Virus record (IMG/VR): IMGVR_UViG_2511231131_000003 | From: a virus | Taxonomy: Duplodnaviria > Heunggongvirae > Uroviricota > Caudoviricetes | Length of the DNA: 40,699 nt | Reading direction: 5' to 3' (one strand) | Shown: positions 2,006 to 40,699 of the stretch, piece by piece | How positions within the stretch are numbered: the stretch's first letter is position 1 | Layout of the letters: each line of letters opens with the position of its first letter | Translations under genes and position numbers: made by a program | Notes under the pieces: generated by a model | Seen by the model: only the letters and a program-made list of their open reading frames with translations | What the model was told of the DNA's origin: nothing | The model's database searches: none

Positions 2006-2221
2006 TCACCGTTCCTTAAAGACGCCGTTTAACATGCCGATCGCCAGGCTTAAATGAGTCGGTGTGAATCCCATCAGCGTTACCGTTTCGCGGTGCTTCT
2101 TAAGTACGCTACGGCAAATGTCATCGACGTTTTTATCCGGAAACTGCTGTCTGGCTTTTTTGATTTCAGAATTAGCCTGACGGGCAATGCTGCGAAGGGC
2201 GTTTTCCTGCTGAGGTGTCAT
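2006..2221 (-). CDS. hypothetical protein (71 aa from ATG at 2221)
   Basis: The ORF-track start at 2320 is TTG; internal ATG at 2221 overlaps (ATGA) the stop of an upstream 27-codon ORF, suggesting translational coupling. Product MTPQQENALRS... not recognised. Confidence 0.4.
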   Translation of the reverse strand: MTPQQENALRSIARQANSEIKKARQQFPDKNVDDICRSVLKKHRETVTLMGFTPTHLSLAIGMLNGVFKER

Positions 2222-2301
2222 TGAACAAGTCCCATGTCGGCAAGCATAAGCACACAGAATATGAAGCCCGCTGCCAGAAAAATGCATTCCGTGGTTGTCA
2301 T
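2218..2301 (-). CDS. possible small hydrophobic peptide (27 aa, MTTTECIFLAAGFIFCVLMLADMGLVQ)
   Basis: ATG at 2301 preceded by GGAGG at 4-nt spacing; stop TGA overlaps the ATG of the downstream 71-aa ORF; hydrophobic single-helix-like composition. Below the ORF-track size cutoff; hand-translated. Confidence 0.3.
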   Translation of the reverse strand: MTTTECIFLAAGFIFCVLMLADMGLVQ

Positions 2302-2341
2302 GCAGCCTCCCGACGGGCAAGAATCCTTGAGCCGAACGCCA

Positions 2342-2854
2342 TCAACTCTCCACGATCAACGGTCGTAAAGTGGCAGTGTGTACGGGGTATGGGTGCCAGA
2401 TAATGAGCATCGAGCCTTTATTATTTCCACTGACGGGTTTCTCAGTGAGTGGGTTAATAAATGCCAGTCGTCCTGCCGTGATGAATCTGACCTCACTGGC
2501 GGTTTGTATCGCTTCATGAAACCATCCGACAGATGTGTCAGCAGGCAATAACATTACACATCCCACACTACTGAATTTGTTTTCAGTGGCTGCCTTTTTC
2601 ACAAAAGGGGAAATATTGCTGTATGGTGGATTCAACCAGACATAACCAGAGGCATATCCCATTGCTTCAGGCCATGAAGTGGTTAATGTGTTCTGCTCCT
2701 GTGAGATAAAAAGCCGACATAGTCGGTTTTTTTCGCTGGCGGCAGCATCAAGTTGAAAAACGAACTCTGCATTAAGCGCAGCAAAAATCTCTGGTGGTGT
2801 GCGCCAGCTGTCGCGATGTTCGGCAGGAGTATTGCTTCCGGTGAAATCAGTCAT
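2342..2854 (-). CDS. phage Dam-like N6-adenine DNA methyltransferase
   Basis: 170-aa ORF containing NPPY (motif IV of N6-adenine/N4-cytosine methyltransferases) in YVWLNPPYSN; ATG at 2854 overlaps the stop of the upstream small ORF. Confidence 0.75.
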   Translation of the reverse strand: MTDFTGSNTPAEHRDSWRTPPEIFAALNAEFVFQLDAAASEKNRLCRLFISQEQNTLTTSWPEAMGYASGYVWLNPPYSNISPFVKKAATENKFSSVGCVMLLPADTSVGWFHEAIQTASEVRFITAGRLAFINPLTEKPVSGNNKGSMLIIWHPYPVHTATLRPLIVES

Positions 2855-3008
2855 ACAGCCCCCGTTTATTATTTATCGCCTCAGCCAGCCGCTGTGCTTT
2901 CAGTGGATTTCTGATAACAGAAAGGCCGGGAAATACCCAGCCTCGCTTTGTAAGGGAGTAGACGAAAGTGATCGCGCCTACCCGGATATTATCGTGAGGA
3001 TGCGTCAT
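2847..3008 (-). CDS. small ORF at lambda orf60a position (53 aa)
   Basis: Hand-translated [56 protein letters not shown] overlaps the exo stop (ATGA) and its stop overlaps the methyltransferase ATG. An alternative ATG lies at 3014. Confidence 0.4.
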
Positions 3009-3685
3009 CGCCATTGCTCCCCAAATACAAAACTAATTTCAGCCAGTGCCTCGTCCATTTTTTCGATGAACTCCGGCACCATCTCGTCAAAACTCGCCAT
3101 GTACTTTTCATTCCGCTCAATCACGACATAATGCAGGCCTTCACGCTTCATGCGCGGGTCATAGTTGGCAAAGTACCAGGCATCTTTTCGCGTCACCCAC
3201 ATGCTGTACTGCACCTGGGCCATGTAAGCCGATTTTATTGCCTCGAAACCACCGAGCCGGAATTTCATGAAATCCCGGGAGGTAAACGGGCATTTCAGTT
3301 CAAGGCCGTTGCCGTCACTGCATAAACCATCGGGAGAGCAGGCGGTGCGCATACTTTCGTCGCGATAGATGATCGGGGATTCAGTAATATTCACGCCGGA
3401 AGTGAATTCAAACAGGGTTCTGGCGTCGTTCTCGTACTGTTTTCCCCAGGCCAGCGCCTTAGCATTAACTTCCGGAGCCACACCGGTGCAAACCTCAGCC
3501 AGCAGGGTGTGGAAGTAGGACATTTTCATGTCAGGCCACTTCTTTCCTGAGCGGGGCTTTGCTATCACGTTGTGAACTTCTGAAGCGGTGATGACGCCGA
3601 GCCGTAATTTGTGCCATGCATCATCCCCCTGTTCGACAGCTCTCACGTCGATCCCGGTACGCTGCAGGATAATGTCCGGTGTCAT
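3005..3685 (-). CDS. exo: lambda exonuclease (Red-alpha, 5'-3' dsDNA exonuclease)
   Basis: 226-aa product matches lambda Exo over its whole length as I recall it ([40 protein letters not shown]...). Confidence 0.96.
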
Positions 3686-4844: not shown

Positions 4845-5255
4845 TTAGTGATTCAGGCCGTTACCGCGTCCGTCGAGAAAAACTTCCACGAGCAAATCAC
4901 GGGTATAAGTGCGCTCGATGCCGCGATGCAGATATAGCCGTCCGCGTAAATTAGCTGATGCAGTCCAGGTACCATCTTTGTGTTTGACCAGCATTCCTGG
5001 CATGACCGCACCGCGATTAACGGTCTGCGTTCCGTAATGTTGATGAACCATAAAAACTCCTGCCCGTAAGCTGGGCTGCTGAACATATATAGACTTCTGC
5101 GCGTATTCAGGCGGTGGATGGCCGCCGGTTGTCATAACTAAGCCGCCTCGTTGAAGCGACTGAGGTATGAAGTGTTGAGTTGATTTCAGCTGGTCACACC
5201 GACGTTCACGCGTCCGTTTCACCCCTCGCACTCCCCGGAGCCTGCCGAAATTCAA
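4845..5255 (-). CDS. first ORF downstream of putative pL (kil/N position); function unknown
   Basis: Open frame of 136 codons starting with TTG at 5255; in-frame ATGs give 96-, 68- or 52-aa products. The stop lies about 44 nt inside the ancestral long-gam frame, mirroring the lambda kil-gam overlap. N-proximal Arg-rich stretch ([15 protein letters not shown]). Start and identity unresolved. Confidence 0.35.
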
Positions 5256-5318
5256 GCTGCGGATCTAAGCGGTCATCGCAACGGTGAAGTTATAAATTTT
5301 GTGATACCAACATCGATG

Positions 5319-5372
5319 CAATAGCATGACAATAGCAATGGCTATTGGTGTAGTCAATAGCAATTGGTATTG
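5319..5372. promoter_or_regulatory. putative OL operator cluster and leftward promoter pL
   Basis: Repeated CAATAGC half-sites including 18-bp inverted repeat CAATAGCAATGGCTATTG (5330-5347) and CAATAGCAATTGGTATTG (5355-5372). On the minus strand, -35 TTGACT (5357-5352), 17-bp spacer, -10 TATTGT (5334-5329), pointing toward 4845-5255. A GG(T/A)ATTGATAATG block is shared with the OR region. Confidence 0.5.
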
Positions 5373-5608
5373 ATAATGTTTGATATACTTGTTCTGATTG
5401 ATAATTAAATGAATTTTTATAAAAAAGAGTATGAAGACTTATTGGTGTGGCTGAAATTTGTACAGCTTTAATGTGCCTCGTGACAGAGGGGCATCGGGTT
5501 GTGGTGAGCTCGGTAGGTTGGCAGCAAATTTAATCGAATATTGGTAGTCTGAGTTCTTATGTGTATTTTTTTTAGTCAGTTGCTAAATGATACATAAATG
5601 ACTTATTA

Positions 5609-5641
5609 GCCCCGCCATCGCTTTGTACGGGGCGTTTATTT
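5609..5641. terminator. GC-rich hairpin adjacent to the stop of the SIR2-like gene
   Basis: CCCCG-N13-CGGGG stem-loop (5610-5632) followed on the plus strand by TTTATTT; on the minus strand it lies directly 3' of the SIR2-like gene stop with an A/U-rich tail. Could terminate the repressor-SIR2 transcript or act bidirectionally. Confidence 0.35.
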
Positions 5642-7247
5642 AATTTATCTTTTCAACATTTCCATGAATCAACAAGTCGTAGGCAAGAAATAGTTTCCTA
5701 TACTGGGTTTTTAAATTGTCAACGTCGCATGTCTTGAATTGAACAAACGCTTCTTTTTTAACATAATCTTCAATCTCCTCTTTGGGGATATTTTTTATGT
5801 TCTTAATGACTATAGACAATTCTTTGTACTTTTTGAACGTTGCATCCTTTATATCTTTGATGTTGGTGTAAATTTTATTTGCATTGATTTTATCTAAGGT
5901 GATTTTATTGAGCAAGTCGTCTAGTTTTCCGTGGCGTTCAATGCGTTGATTTAGTTTTAACACATATTTAGCTGGCAAACTTAACTCTTTCAAATTACAT
6001 GAGGTTATAGTTTTTGAAAATGGAAGTTGTAATGAGTTTACTGAGCCTAATATGAAATCTATGGCTAATTTATTAGATATTTCATTTTTATTAAATAAGT
6101 AATCTTCAAGATAATTTATTTCTTTAACTTGTGTGAATACATACTTTTTATCGCCTAGAGCAACAACTAAATTTTTTCCTTGTTTAACACTTTCTTCAAG
6201 TCTGTCTAAGTCAGAAGGTGAAACCAATAGAGTATCTAAGTGCCCTTTTTCACCCTCATTAATGATAAGTGTTTTGATGGCTCTTTGATACCTTAAAACA
6301 TCATAAGGTGAGAGCCCTTCATCAACAGCACTGATCTCATCATAGATCTGTTTATAGTTATCTGTTTTAACAGATGTATATGTAATTTGTAGCTGTTGAT
6401 CGGTAATCTGTTTTGGTACTACTTCCTGTTCATTCTCTTTATATTCAATCAAAATTATTCTTTCAGCTGATTTTCGACCATCTTCTCTAGGTAGTTGTGA
6501 GGAAAAATCAGAAAGAAGTTTCTTTACATTCCTGTCAGTTAAAGAATATCCAAGAAAAACTATTGGATTTTTAATCATGTTAGATAGTATCTTGGCACTA
6601 ATGAGTATAGATTTGTTGTCATATTTTTCGTAATCATCTTTATTTATGATTATTGAGTGTGGATCCTTTATATCACCATGGATTTTGTATAACTCACTCC
6701 ATCCAATAGTATCTTCGAAAAAACCATTATTTCCAATATAGAGTTTTGGAGTTACATTTTGCTCTTGAAGTAAATTTTCTATGAAAGCATCATAATTTGT
6801 AGTGATGATTATCTTGGCCTTTTTTATTAATGTTTTAAATGATGCTAATTCATCAAGATTTACATCCTTTCTGATTGTGTTATTAGAAAATCTTTGGCAT
6901 ATAGCGTATTTAAATGGTGAAATATCTTCACTAAAAACCCTCTTGGCATCTAGTCCATTTAATTTTAATTTGCCAGTCCTAAACAATAGATTGTAATCAT
7001 TTTCAATTTTACTTGCTGCCTCTGTATAAATCTTATGATCGATATCATTATCACTGTTATTTTTATGTGATTCTTTTATTGTTAAAAGATAACTATAGAA
7101 ATCATTTGTGGGATTTGTTATTTTCCAATACTCGTTTAATAGCTCTTCCCACGTTGGGTAGTTCTCTAAATATCTTTTTGAAATGCCTGAGCCAATAAAG
7201 ACTATTGGGTAATTTTTGAATTCAAAATTTTTTTTTGACATATCCAT
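5640..7247 (-). CDS. SIR2-family (ThsA-like NADase domain) protein with uncharacterised C-terminal domain; candidate anti-phage defence protein in the rexAB position
   Basis: 535-aa ORF, markedly AT-rich relative to flanking phage genes. N-terminal ~270 aa carries SIR2_2/ThsA-type motifs: VFIGSGIS, IITTNYDAFIENLL, YKIHGDIKDPHSIIINKDDYEKY and VFLGYSLTDRNV (conserved Asn and His of the NADase site present). C-terminal ~260 aa has no motif I recognise. Same strand and immediately downstream of the CI-type repressor gene. Confidence 0.85.
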   Translation of the reverse strand: MDMSKKNFEFKNYPIVFIGSGISKRYLENYPTWEELLNEYWKITNPTNDFYSYLLTIKESHKNNSDNDIDHKIYTEAASKIENDYNLLFRTGKLKLNGLDAKRVFSEDISPFKYAICQRFSNNTIRKDVNLDELASFKTLIKKAKIIITTNYDAFIENLLQEQNVTPKLYIGNNGFFEDTIGWSELYKIHGDIKDPHSIIINKDDYEKYDNKSILISAKILSNMIKNPIVFLGYSLTDRNVKKLLSDFSSQLPREDGRKSAERIILIEYKENEQEVVPKQITDQQLQITYTSVKTDNYKQIYDEISAVDEGLSPYDVLRYQRAIKTLIINEGEKGHLDTLLVSPSDLDRLEESVKQGKNLVVALGDKKYVFTQVKEINYLEDYLFNKNEISNKLAIDFILGSVNSLQLPFSKTITSCNLKELSLPAKYVLKLNQRIERHGKLDDLLNKITLDKINANKIYTNIKDIKDATFKKYKELSIVIKNIKNIPKEEIEDYVKKEAFVQFKTCDVDNLKTQYRKLFLAYDLLIHGNVEKIN

Positions 7248-7353
7248 ATACCTTAAGCTCTGCTTGAAACATCCATTCTATAAATTATGAGGATGTCAGC
7301 ATGTCTCACCAAAACATCATCTGGTTATCTTGATGAAATCTGTCATTAATAAT

Positions 7354-8046
7354 CTACCCATGTTTTCTATATGTCTGTGGCATGCTCCCAATAACTTTCC
7401 CAAATATAAATACCCGATTCATTTCGTCTTTTTCGATCGGGTCCCATGGTGAGTAGCTCTTGTTATCAGAGATAACCAGCAGCTTATCCTTCATCATTTG
7501 CAGGCGCTTTACATGGGCTGTGTCGTCGTACAGAAACGCATAGATACCATCACCGTCGAAAGATTTAACAGTGATATCAACGAACAGAAGATCACCTGGT
7601 TCGATCGTTCCTGACATGCTGTCACCGCGTACGTTAATGATGCGGATATTTTCTGCCTTCCTGCCATCGAACATGTGACGAGCATCGTCAAACGAGTACT
7701 CAACCGAGCGTAGGACTTCTACAAACTCACGGTTGATGACACCCGGCCCAGCACTGACTTCTATATCAAGAACGTCAATCTTGAAGTATTTGGAATGGTT
7801 GACAGCAGGCTTCCCTGATTGTTGACCGTCATTTCTCATCGGGCCTATGCCTGATGAGAGCCACTCTGTTCGAACACCCAATGCATTAGCTATTTCAACA
7901 ATTTTTGTTGAGCCGCGTGCGTTGCCGCTTGTCAGTCTCCAGATTGTGGGTTGAGCTACGCCAGACGCCTTTGCAAGAGCGCCTTGAGACATTCCAGATT
8001 GTTCCATCGCTAGGTTTAAGCGATCAGCAAGAGTTTCTTTTTTCAT
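7354..8046 (-). CDS. CI-type prophage repressor (N-terminal HTH, C-terminal S24 LexA-like peptidase domain)
   Basis: ATG at 8046 (the ORF-track start at 8082 is TTG); HTH region QGALAKASGVAQPTIWRL; S24 autocleavage motifs GDSM and a downstream K; divergent from the cro-like gene across an operator-containing spacer. Not lambda cI by sequence. Confidence 0.88.
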   Translation of the reverse strand: MKKETLADRLNLAMEQSGMSQGALAKASGVAQPTIWRLTSGNARGSTKIVEIANALGVRTEWLSSGIGPMRNDGQQSGKPAVNHSKYFKIDVLDIEVSAGPGVINREFVEVLRSVEYSFDDARHMFDGRKAENIRIINVRGDSMSGTIEPGDLLFVDITVKSFDGDGIYAFLYDDTAHVKRLQMMKDKLLVISDNKSYSPWDPIEKDEMNRVFIFGKVIGSMPQTYRKHG

Positions 8047-8156
8047 AAGTTTTAATTTATACGCTTGCGTATTGATGGTCAAAACACGTTTTACTATTGA
8101 TTGGATTAATACGCATTGCTATTATCCATTCATTGTAATACCAATAGGAATTGATA
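8047..8156. promoter_or_regulatory. putative OR region with divergent promoters (PRM-like leftward, PR-like rightward)
   Basis: Rightward: -35 TTGATT (8097-8102), 17-bp spacer, -10 TATTAT (8120-8125), RBS AGGA (8146-8149), cro-like ATG at 8157. Leftward (minus strand): TTGACC, 17 bp, TAAATT ending about 7 nt before the repressor ATG, suggesting a leaderless or near-leaderless transcript as at lambda PRM. Inverted repeat ATACGCTTGCGTAT (8059-8072) lies inside the leftward promoter spacer; GCTATTA and CAATAGG half-site variants at 8118-8124 and 8142-8148. Confidence 0.55.
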
Positions 8157-8384
8157 ATGACAAATCAAACCATTCAACTCGCAATCAGTATTACAGGTAG
8201 TCAAAAACGACTGGCAGATCTATGCGGTGTAGCCCAGCCCACTGTTTGGCGTTGGCTACACGGTGGCGGAATTGATGCCCGCTATGTAATGAAAATTGTC
8301 TCAGCCACTGGTGGAAAGATTAAACCAGCAGATATTCGTCCCGACCTTGCACCATTGTTTAACGCGAGTAATTCTGCCGCCTAA
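8157..8384 (+). CDS. Cro-like HTH regulator (YdaS family)
   Basis: 75 aa from ATG at 8157 (the ORF-track start at 8151 is TTG); HTH LADLCGVAQPTVWRWLHGG and C-terminal IRPDLAPLF resemble YdaS-type Cro proteins of Rac-like prophages; divergent from the repressor. Confidence 0.75.
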   Translation: MTNQTIQLAISITGSQKRLADLCGVAQPTVWRWLHGGGIDARYVMKIVSATGGKIKPADIRPDLAPLFNASNSAA

Positions 8385-8408
8385 ACTGCGGCGTTAACTG
8401 ATAAGGCA

Positions 8409-8954
8409 ATGACTATGCAACCACTTACATACCAACAGACTAGCGGATTTAGCCCGACTGCGGTGATAAATCGTTCTCAAACAAAACAGGCGCCAGGCCA
8501 CGAAAAAATCCGTGATGCCGTTCGCGCTTGGTCGGCTGCAGATAATCAGGATGTTGTTGCCGCACTCATTGTGAATGAGTATCGGGAGCAGGGCGGCGGC
8601 ACCATCGATTTCCCTGATGATGTCAGCCGTGCACGCCAGAAGCTGTTCCGTTTCCTCGATAACAAATTCGATTCTGAAAAATACCGAAATAACGTGCGTG
8701 AACTGACCCCGGCAATTCTGGCGGTACTACCGCTGGAATATCGCGGCCACCTGGTTGAGCAGGATAGCTTCATGGCTCGGTTGGCTGAAATGGATAAGGA
8801 ACTCAGTGAGGCAAAGCAGGCGGTCATTCTCAACGCACCACGCCACCAGAAACTGAAGGAAATGAGTGAAGGTATTGTGTCGATGTTTCGTGTGGACCCG
8901 GATCTGGCTGGTCCATTAATGGCGATGGTTACCACCATGCTGGGGGCAATATGA
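8409..8954 (+). CDS. YdaT-family protein (CII-position regulator)
   Basis: 181-aa ORF directly after the cro-like gene; segment LTPAILAVLPLEYRGHL resembles the conserved core of YdaT as I recall it; stop overlaps the O start. Confidence 0.5.
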   Translation: MTMQPLTYQQTSGFSPTAVINRSQTKQAPGHEKIRDAVRAWSAADNQDVVAALIVNEYREQGGGTIDFPDDVSRARQKLFRFLDNKFDSEKYRNNVRELTPAILAVLPLEYRGHLVEQDSFMARLAEMDKELSEAKQAVILNAPRHQKLKEMSEGIVSMFRVDPDLAGPLMAMVTTMLGAI

Positions 8955-40115: not shown

Positions 40116-40699
40116 TGGCATTCAGAATGAGTGAACAACCACGGACCATAAAAATTTATAATCTGCTGGCCGGAACTAATGAATTTATTGGTGAAGGTGA
40201 CGCATATATTCCGCCTCATACAGGTCTGCCAGCAAACAGTACCTATATTGCACCGCCAGATATTCCTGCTGGCTTTGTGGCCGTTTTCAACAGTGATGAG
40301 GGATCGTGGCATCTCGTTGAAGACCATCGGGGAAAAACCGTCTATGACGTGGCTTCCGGCGACGCGTTATTTATTTCTGAACTTGGCCCATTACCGGAAA
40401 ATGTCACCTGGTTATCCCCGGAAGGGGAGTTTCAGAAGTGGAACGGCACAGCCTGGGTGAAAGATGCAGAAGCAGAAAAACTGTTCCGGATCCGGGAGGC
40501 GGAAGAAACAAAAAACAGCCTGATGCAGGTAGCCAGTGAGCATATTGCGCCACTTCAGGATGCTGTAGATCTGGAAATCGCAACGGAGGAAGAAACCTCA
40601 TTGCTGGAAGCCTGGAAAAAGTATCGGGTGTTGCTGAACCGTGTTGATACATCAACTGCACCTGATATTGAGTGGCCTACGAACCCTGTCAGGGAGTAA
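40115..40699 (+). CDS. tfa: tail fibre assembly chaperone Tfa
   Basis: 194-aa ORF whose ATG overlaps the stf stop (TAATG); product matches lambda Tfa as I recall it; stop codon is the last 3 nt of the window. Confidence 0.93.

Follow-up and report, generated by a model that had tools for sequence, protein, structure and literature searches.

The DNA analysed here, referred to as the window, is a stretch of 40,699 nucleotides (nt) from IMG/VR virus record IMGVR_UViG_2511231131_000003. It holds a complete lambda-like prophage of Escherichia coli O55:H7 that is integrated by a tRNA-Arg gene (argU) beside fimZ (RefSeq NC_017656.1), and its 3.25 kb from 5200 to 8450 are 100% identical to strain RM12579. 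This work concerns the SIR2-family gene of the prophage, which lies on the minus strand between the putative OL/pL region and the CI-type repressor gene. An earlier inspection of the letters without database searches, hereafter the sequence-only reading, had placed this gene in the slot occupied by rexA and rexB in lambda, on the repressor strand and 3' of the repressor, with the repressor on one side and operator DNA and a hairpin on the other, all of which was borne out. The features needed at this point are the following.

5640..7247, minus strand: SIR2-family gene, an open reading frame (ORF) of 535 amino acids (aa), member of PDC-S25 and phrog_2695
7354-8046, minus strand: CI-type repressor gene with HTH_3 and Peptidase_S24 domains (Pfam), coordinates in agreement with RefSeq
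7248..7353, minus strand: spacer of 106 nt separating the cI stop codon from the start of the SIR2 gene (promoter and terminator scan, folding)

The low G+C content (GC) claimed for the 535-aa ORF was found as described, at 0.297 compared with 0.494 for the prophage left arm and 0.534 for the remaining window, and its third-position GC (GC3) is 0.26 compared with 0.46-0.62 for cI, bet and exo. RefSeq places the start two codons later at the second ATG (7241), giving a protein of 533 aa annotated as 'SIR2 family protein' (WP_000038832.1). Every motif quoted in the sequence-only reading was located in the translation: VFIGSGIS at residues 16-23, IITTNYDAFIENLL at 147-160, YKIHGDI at 187-193, KDDYEKY at 203-209 and VFLGYSLTD at 230-238. 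The underlying observation is thereby confirmed as real.

The repressor gene immediately precedes the SIR2 gene on their common strand, and the spacer between them contains no consensus promoter or terminator on the coding strand and no G+C-rich stem followed by a U run. As the spacer is devoid of promoter-like or terminator-like sites, co-transcription of cI and the SIR2 gene from the maintenance promoter would be the simplest reading. The SIR2 gene shares slot and orientation with lambda RexAB, as it follows cI on the 3' side, is read from the cI strand and has OL/pL on its other side, and by analogy this type of slot would imply expression in the lysogen and a role in exclusion. RexAB, however, is a two-component system of a sensor and a membrane protein, whereas the SIR2 gene encodes one soluble enzyme; the two are unrelated in sequence, and SIR2_2 was the only significant Pfam match of the SIR2 protein, with nothing detected for RexA or RexB.

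Domain architecture and family assignment

By conservation, the protein divides into three parts, with a mean pairwise identity of 0.60 in the catalytic core, 0.53 in residues 296-375 and 0.34 in residues 376-535, the most variable part. They are encoded as follows.

6363..7247, minus strand: SIR2 (NAD-binding Rossmann) domain, residues 1-295 (AlphaFold2 model, Foldseek, alignment)
6123..6362, minus strand: conserved middle segment, residues 296-375 (mean pairwise identity as above)
5643..6122, minus strand: variable all-helical C-terminal domain, residues 376-535, a putative sensor (AlphaFold2 model, identity)

The N-terminal part matches Pfam SIR2_2 (PF13289) at residues 146-285 with 84.2 bits against a cutoff of 24.5 (E 1.2e-23). 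An AlphaFold2 model computed from an alignment of 42 homologues reached a mean predicted local distance difference test score (pLDDT) of 81.9 for the whole protein, and within it residues 1-295 adopt a Rossmann-type fold, mostly at pLDDT >85, which is interrupted around residues 45-145 by a variable helical insertion. The Foldseek matches listed for this domain are the SIR2 domains of DSR2, ThsA and KomC (E 1e-8 to 1e-7), DSR2 being the top match in the Protein Data Bank (PDB), with template modelling (TM) scores of up to 0.65 against SIR2-only chains; by sequence, PDB matches include ThsA (E 3e-12) and KomC. In a HMMER alignment, the Asn of the TTNYD motif (Asn151, codon 6795-6797) and the His of the HGD motif (His190, codon 6678-6680) coincide with the catalytic N112 and H152 of B. 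cereus ThsA. Among related PDB entries, several are mutated at the catalytic positions: the ThsA chain of 8bto has Ala at the aligned Asn position, and entry names include DSR2 H171A and KomC H146N. Across the 42 homologues, which reach down to 41% identity, N151, D153 and G19, G21 and S23 of the GxGxS loop (GSGIS, residues 19-23) are invariant, while H190 is present in 41. The SIR2_2 domain with Asn and His at the catalytic positions, as claimed from the letters, was thus recovered by Pfam, by the alignment to ThsA and by conservation among homologues, and by homology we infer that the N-terminal domain acts as a glycohydrolase (NADase) of nicotinamide adenine dinucleotide (NAD+).

The extent of the remainder was corrected, as the SIR2 domain runs from residue 1 to about 295 and leaves about 240 aa rather than the approximately 260 aa of the sequence-only reading. 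Prediction yields nothing but helices for this C-terminal half, whose residues 376-535 reach pLDDT >90. The half therefore cannot take up any of the SLOG, STALD or Macro sensor folds that had been suggested for comparison, and neither the predicted structure nor profiles revealed a SLOG/STALD, Macro or TIR domain in it. Structural matches of the C-terminal 240 aa were limited to generic HEAT/ARM solenoids, Foldseek against the viral BFVD returned nothing at E <1, and Pfam at E up to 10 yielded only a noise match to RBB1NT. A profile of the C-terminal half searched against 1.84 billion representative proteins matched 111 clusters, in which full-length matches measure about 505-546 aa and carry the domain at about residues 260-540, and shorter ones resemble fragments of the same protein family. 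Since the profile finds the domain only in this architecture or in apparent fragments of it, the C-terminal domain appears to be family-specific, and its interpretation as a shuffled module fused to other effectors was rejected. Two representatives of 250 and 244 aa correspond to the C-terminal half alone (profile 1-232 at residues 11-243 and 16-243) and may represent free-standing sensor domains, fragments or the products of split genes.

The middle segment contains the invariant residues L337, L341, V361, A363 and G365. Within it, residues 335-372 (window 6132-6245) form a highly conserved stretch of the type LxxxLxxP...GKNLVVALGD, which stays at pLDDT <50 in full-length and C-terminal structure predictions alike; this low confidence would be in keeping with a segment that acquires its fold only upon oligomerisation or activation.

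The PADLOC search proposed in the sequence-only reading returned a full-length match to the single-gene candidate PDC-S25 (PDLC04967, E 2.7e-235, residues 1-528 against model positions 1-526 of 528), and a second PDC-S25 model, PDLC04968, matched at E 4.2e-84. The protein is likewise a full-length member of phrog_2695 ('unknown function', E 3.5e-203), while NCBIfam assigns no family to it. The PDC systems comprise 145 candidates, genes embedded in BREX, DISARM or type I restriction-modification loci, and were called untested by their authors (Payne et al., bioRxiv 10.1101/2024.01.29.577857); a later paper left them out as unvalidated, and PDC-S25 itself appears in the literature as a predicted strain-specific system of one O157:H7 isolate. 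The window protein belongs to this same family without any structural difference, and the catalogue entry is a prediction only. Because the family is already catalogued as PDC-S25 and phrog_2695, the novelty assumed in the sequence-only reading is lowered, and the SIR2 gene is a good experimental target, not a new kind of system. New in the present analysis are the domain dissection with the family-specific putative sensor domain, the exact breakpoints of the cargo module described below and the link to repressor-proximal slots across phyla; the PDC-S25 papers that we read contain neither the placement in a prophage immunity region nor a domain dissection.

Among characterised systems, DSR1 and DSR2 are likewise single polypeptides in which an N-terminal SIR2 domain is followed by a helical non-catalytic part, with no partner gene, and by analogy the window protein probably follows a DSR-type logic in which a helical sensor releases the SIR2 NADase. 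They differ in size (about 1000 aa compared with 535 aa), and the window sensor domain has no specific similarity to theirs. With no PADLOC Dsr model among the matches (E up to 1) and an unrelated sensor domain, membership in the DSR1/DSR2 family was rejected. The designation 'ThsA-like' holds for the SIR2 core, which by sequence is closest to Thoeris ThsA (PADLOC ThsA1, E 1e-21), but not for the rest of the protein, where the PADLOC ThsA model, confined to residues 147-259, finds no match. In contrast to ThsA, the window protein lacks the SLOG/STALD ligand-binding domain and is accompanied by no ThsB/TIR gene; ThsA membership was rejected on the grounds that the profile matches the SIR2 core only, with neither SLOG/STALD nor Macro domain and no thsB in the prophage or beside the homologues. 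SIR2-HerA (Gao_Her/Nezha), SIR2-APAZ/pAgo (SPARSA) and KomBC (Kongming) share the SIR2-fold NADase effector but need an adjacent partner, namely HerA, a short pAgo or KomA/KomB, none of which is found in the window; with no partner gene in the window or the other contexts examined below, membership in the SIR2-HerA and pAgo systems was rejected as well.

Lysogeny-module contexts and an exchangeable slot

We compared the window with nine homologue loci at 41-74% identity, which are organised as follows (HTH, helix-turn-helix).

Morganella: repressor (HTH and S24), then SIR2
Kosakonia: repressor (HTH and S24), then SIR2
Streptococcus suis: HTH repressor, SIR2, integrase
Streptococcus phage SVep1: CI-like repressor, SIR2, integrase
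Streptococcus phage Javan227: repressor, two genes, SIR2, integrase
Listeria: repressor, several genes including one for an Ltp-type lipoprotein, SIR2, serine recombinase
Latilactobacillus: HTH gene, several genes, SIR2, integrase
Enterococcus faecalis: island with restriction-modification and HepT/MNT genes
Bacillus velezensis: SIR2 after the lysis cassette of a PBSX-like prophage

With the window counted, eight of these ten contexts are lysogeny modules of temperate phages in which the SIR2 gene is co-oriented with the repressor, the integrase or both, and this placement is seen in Enterobacterales and Firmicutes alike. The gene lies directly downstream of a co-oriented repressor in E. coli, Morganella, Kosakonia, Streptococcus suis and phage SVep1, and between repressor and integrase in Javan227, Listeria and Latilactobacillus. 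The protein family is uniform in length (about 520-545 aa). The phage backbones around the gene vary from lambda O/P to helicase-primase, from Red to RecE and from siphovirus to PBSX-like. No neighbour gene is shared across the ten contexts. As the sequence-only reading had stated for the immediate neighbourhood, the ORF list and RefSeq annotation of the prophage contain no TIR, HerA or Argonaute gene, and none occurs in the nine homologue contexts; KomA/KomB, HerA and short Argonaute neighbours are equally absent from the window annotation and the other contexts. The search for a TIR-domain thsB gene covered the prophage and the surroundings of the homologues, with the remaining host genome outside it, and found none.

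In the Listeria monocytogenes prophage, the Ltp-type lipoprotein gene (Pfam Lipoprotein_Ltp, 2154-3113 of the locus) belongs to the same co-oriented string as the SIR2 gene. The Lipoprotein_Ltp family has been linked to superinfection exclusion in Streptococcus thermophilus phage TP-J34.

Comparison with phages of the same immunity delimits the following unit by BLAST breakpoints.

5289..7353, no strand assigned: exchangeable cargo module

In the isolated same-immunity phages (4A7, Lambda_4C10, D2, PhiR30_1 and others), homology extends to 5288 and resumes from exactly 7354, so that the right breakpoint coincides with the cI stop codon and the left one falls about 34 nt into the presumed pL transcript. 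In relatives with near-identical cI, the slot holds toxin-antitoxin-like cargo in the form of two-gene cassettes, namely GevT/GevA in PhiR47_2, HipD/HipA in PhiR5_1 and the genes of an ASCH-domain protein and a hypothetical 353-aa protein in 4A7; a literature search on GevA/GevT returned nothing relevant. The OL operators lie within the exchanged block, with their motif kept and their sequence different. The interval next to cI that holds the SIR2 gene is therefore a cargo hotspot in this phage group, an exchangeable slot between the cI stop and the pL transcript start, and members of the SIR2 gene family occupy the equivalent slot near the repressor in Gram-positive temperate phages.

Among 5426 complete E. 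coli genomes, 166 (about 3%), including O55:H7 and many O157:H7, carry the SIR2 gene, always single-copy, chromosomal, intact and essentially invariant (at least 99% identical). All 166 also carry at least 80% of the SIR2-cI-cro block, the gene thus always occurring with the same cI, and the prophages concerned occupy two or more integration sites, including argU and mlrA/yehV. An example of the latter is O157:H7 F8092B (NZ_CP038355.1, 1768268-1797875), which has the same kil-SIR2-cI-cro module, a frameshifted cro-like gene and, as is typical of Stx phages, a late region of the arrangement Q-tRNA(Ile, Arg, Arg)-DUF6645, with no stx gene annotated.

The window prophage looks defective, with frameshifts in the genes for adenine methyltransferase and small terminase (nohD) and a premature stop within that for the tape-measure protein (about 2298-2854, about 17793-18337 and about 28140-30701; RefSeq NC_017656.1). 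The SIR2 gene is intact despite these nohD, tape-measure and methylase pseudogenes.

Proposed function and alternatives

We consider it probable, although well short of certain, that the SIR2 gene is a lysogen-expressed, self-contained single-gene candidate for abortive infection, carried as exchangeable cargo of the immunity region. Domain architecture, conservation of the catalytic residues, the lack of a conserved partner and the recurrent placement in lysogeny modules are resolved directly. Of the two possibilities offered by the sequence-only reading, genomic context favours the self-contained single-gene system, while the orphan ThsA effector is unlikely.

In the mechanism we infer, with respect to NADase activity, trigger, abortive outcome and co-transcription with cI, the SIR2 gene would be transcribed in the lysogen together with the repressor from the maintenance promoter, as in lambda cI-rexA-rexB, and the protein would therefore be present before a superinfecting phage arrives. 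Of its three parts (SIR2 domain 1-295 with Asn151 and His190, conserved middle 296-375, fast-evolving helical domain 376-535), the helical domain may keep the enzyme off until it recognises a phage component or a consequence of infection, with the conserved middle segment transmitting or gating the signal. The SIR2 domain would then, judging from its homologues, hydrolyse cellular NAD+ and halt both metabolism and phage replication, resulting in abortive infection. Such a logic would be that of DSR1/DSR2 at about half the size and with an unrelated sensor, not that of Thoeris ThsA.

A bolder version, which we regard as conceivable but unlikely, makes the family a third, compact class of stand-alone defence sirtuin, in which the family-specific helical domain of about 160 aa and a middle segment that folds only when the protein oligomerises or binds a ligand would gate the NADase. 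The almost universal position next to the repressor, from E. coli to phages of Streptococcus and Listeria, would then reflect a functional coupling to the lysogenic switch and not just available room for cargo. The protein might, for instance, become active only during expression of the repressor operon, or might sense a step shared by superinfection and induction.

Several points weigh against the single-gene abortive-infection reading. Among open-access papers and bioRxiv, no experimental study of the PDC-S25 family was found, and no paper found there names WP_000038832. None of the 50,697 INPHARED phage records is a coliphage carrying the SIR2 gene, and in E. coli its spread was seen in prophages only, of which one or more are defective. 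The SIR2 fold also occurs in enzymes that modify proteins instead of hydrolysing NAD+, a difference that cannot be read from the sequence alone. The C-terminal domain has no informative structural relative and is a candidate sensor only, and the best conserved non-catalytic stretch, residues 335-372, is modelled without confidence, which makes any account of how the enzyme is regulated tentative. Co-transcription with cI, finally, is deduced from gene order, strand and a spacer free of consensus signals.

Among other explanations, the SIR2 protein might be, instead of a bulk NADase, an enzyme modifying a specific protein or nucleic acid of phage or host, as ADP-ribosyltransferase or deacylase, and in one version tune the maintenance or induction of lysogeny. 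The SIR2 fold does cover deacylases and ADP-ribosyltransferases, and adjacency to the repressor in Gram-negative and Gram-positive temperate phages as well as the strict linkage to one cI allele in 166 of 166 E. coli genomes would be expected of a lysogeny factor. The gene is dispensable, however, as phages with near-identical cI, cro and operator motifs fill the slot with unrelated genes, family members are also encoded at a distance from repressors (behind the lysis cassette in Bacillus, in the restriction-modification island of Enterococcus), and those SIR2_2 relatives tested so far reportedly deplete NAD+, so that we judge such an activity improbable. A dependence on an unlinked host factor or on another protein of its own prophage, such as an antitoxin or co-sensor, would make the gene a non-autonomous defence effector; other SIR2 defence proteins act in complexes with HerA, pAgo or KomB, and the failure of monomer prediction to place residues 335-372 is what one would expect of a segment folding against a partner or in an oligomer. 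Homo-oligomerisation explains the latter equally well, though, and no gene co-occurs with SIR2 across phyla, where the flanking phage backbones differ, which makes this dependence unlikely too.

The remaining two alternatives are weaker. An orphan Thoeris-type effector, awaiting a cyclic ADP-ribose signal from a TIR protein encoded elsewhere in the genome, would account for the proximity of the SIR2 core to ThsA in both PADLOC and the PDB, but the ThsA matches are limited to residues 147-288, with the SLOG/STALD part of the profile unmatched, and a C-terminal half predicted to be all-helical does not agree with an alpha/beta fold of the SLOG or Macro type. With no TIR gene either in the prophage or among the neighbours of the nine homologues, this explanation is extremely unlikely. 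Selfish or neutral AT-rich cargo of no benefit to the lysogen, either an addiction toxin or a recent acquisition silenced by H-NS, is suggested by a GC of 30% where the host has 50%, as is typical of foreign DNA under H-NS silencing, and by the near-identity of all E. coli copies, which points to recent spread. Full-length conservation with invariant catalytic residues from Enterobacterales to Bacilli, the lack of an antitoxin-like neighbour and the intactness of the gene in a prophage with pseudogenes speak against it, and we hold it to be very unlikely.

If the single-gene abortive-infection reading is true, the gene would represent a compact SIR2 NADase defence whose sensor is unrelated to those of ThsA, DSR1/2 and the partner-dependent SIR2 systems, and it would offer a tractable model for the control of a sirtuin NADase by a small helical domain. 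The outcome of phage biocontrol or therapy against O55:H7 and O157:H7 could then be affected.

Transcription signals and further features

The signals flanking the cI and SIR2 genes are listed below.

8054..8082, minus strand: pRM-like promoter candidate, TTGACC-17-TAAATT (consensus match only)
8097..8125, plus strand: pR-like promoter candidate facing the cro-like gene (promoter scan)
5329..5372, minus strand: OL/pL region, two 18-nt near-palindromic putative operators and a leftward promoter-like site (sequence scan)
about 5609..5633, no strand assigned: G+C-rich hairpin directly 3' of the SIR2 stop codon (free energy -14.3 kcal/mol, z -1.8)

Upstream of the repressor, the divergent promoter-like sites are followed by a Cro/YdaS-like gene (8157-8384), a gene in the YdaT/CII position, O and P. 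Since the -10 hexamer of the pRM-like candidate ends 8 nt before the cI ATG (8046), its position suggests a near-leaderless cI message as in lambda. On the 3' side of the SIR2 gene follow the hairpin, an AT-rich spacer of about 270 nt, the operators with pL, and then kil, gam, bet and exo. The near-palindromes CAATAGCAATGGCTATTG (5330-5347) and CAATAGCAATTGGTATTG (5355-5372) both overlap the leftward promoter-like site TTGACT-17-TATTGT (5357..5329), and the motif ATAGCnATTGnTATTG recurs at the corresponding position of phage 4A7, in which the DNA of the cI region is 97% identical.

The hairpin is not statistically unusual at its z of -1.8. As its T-rich tail is present on the plus strand only (5619-5634), it would be a weak candidate for an operon terminator of the cI-SIR2 message and looks more like a terminator for antisense transcription entering from the pL side. 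An Rfam scan of the whole window detected nothing near the SIR2 gene.

An N-type antiterminator gene is not recognisable between pL and kil (window 5052-5328), where the sole long ORF starts with TTG at 5255 and encodes 136 aa in the kil frame with an Arg-rich N-terminus and no Pfam match; Kil measures 68 or 128 aa in related phage records. At the right end of the window, a full-length match to the IS009 RNA family (Rfam RF02111, 229 bits) lies on the plus strand at 40458-40656, inside the tail-fibre assembly gene.

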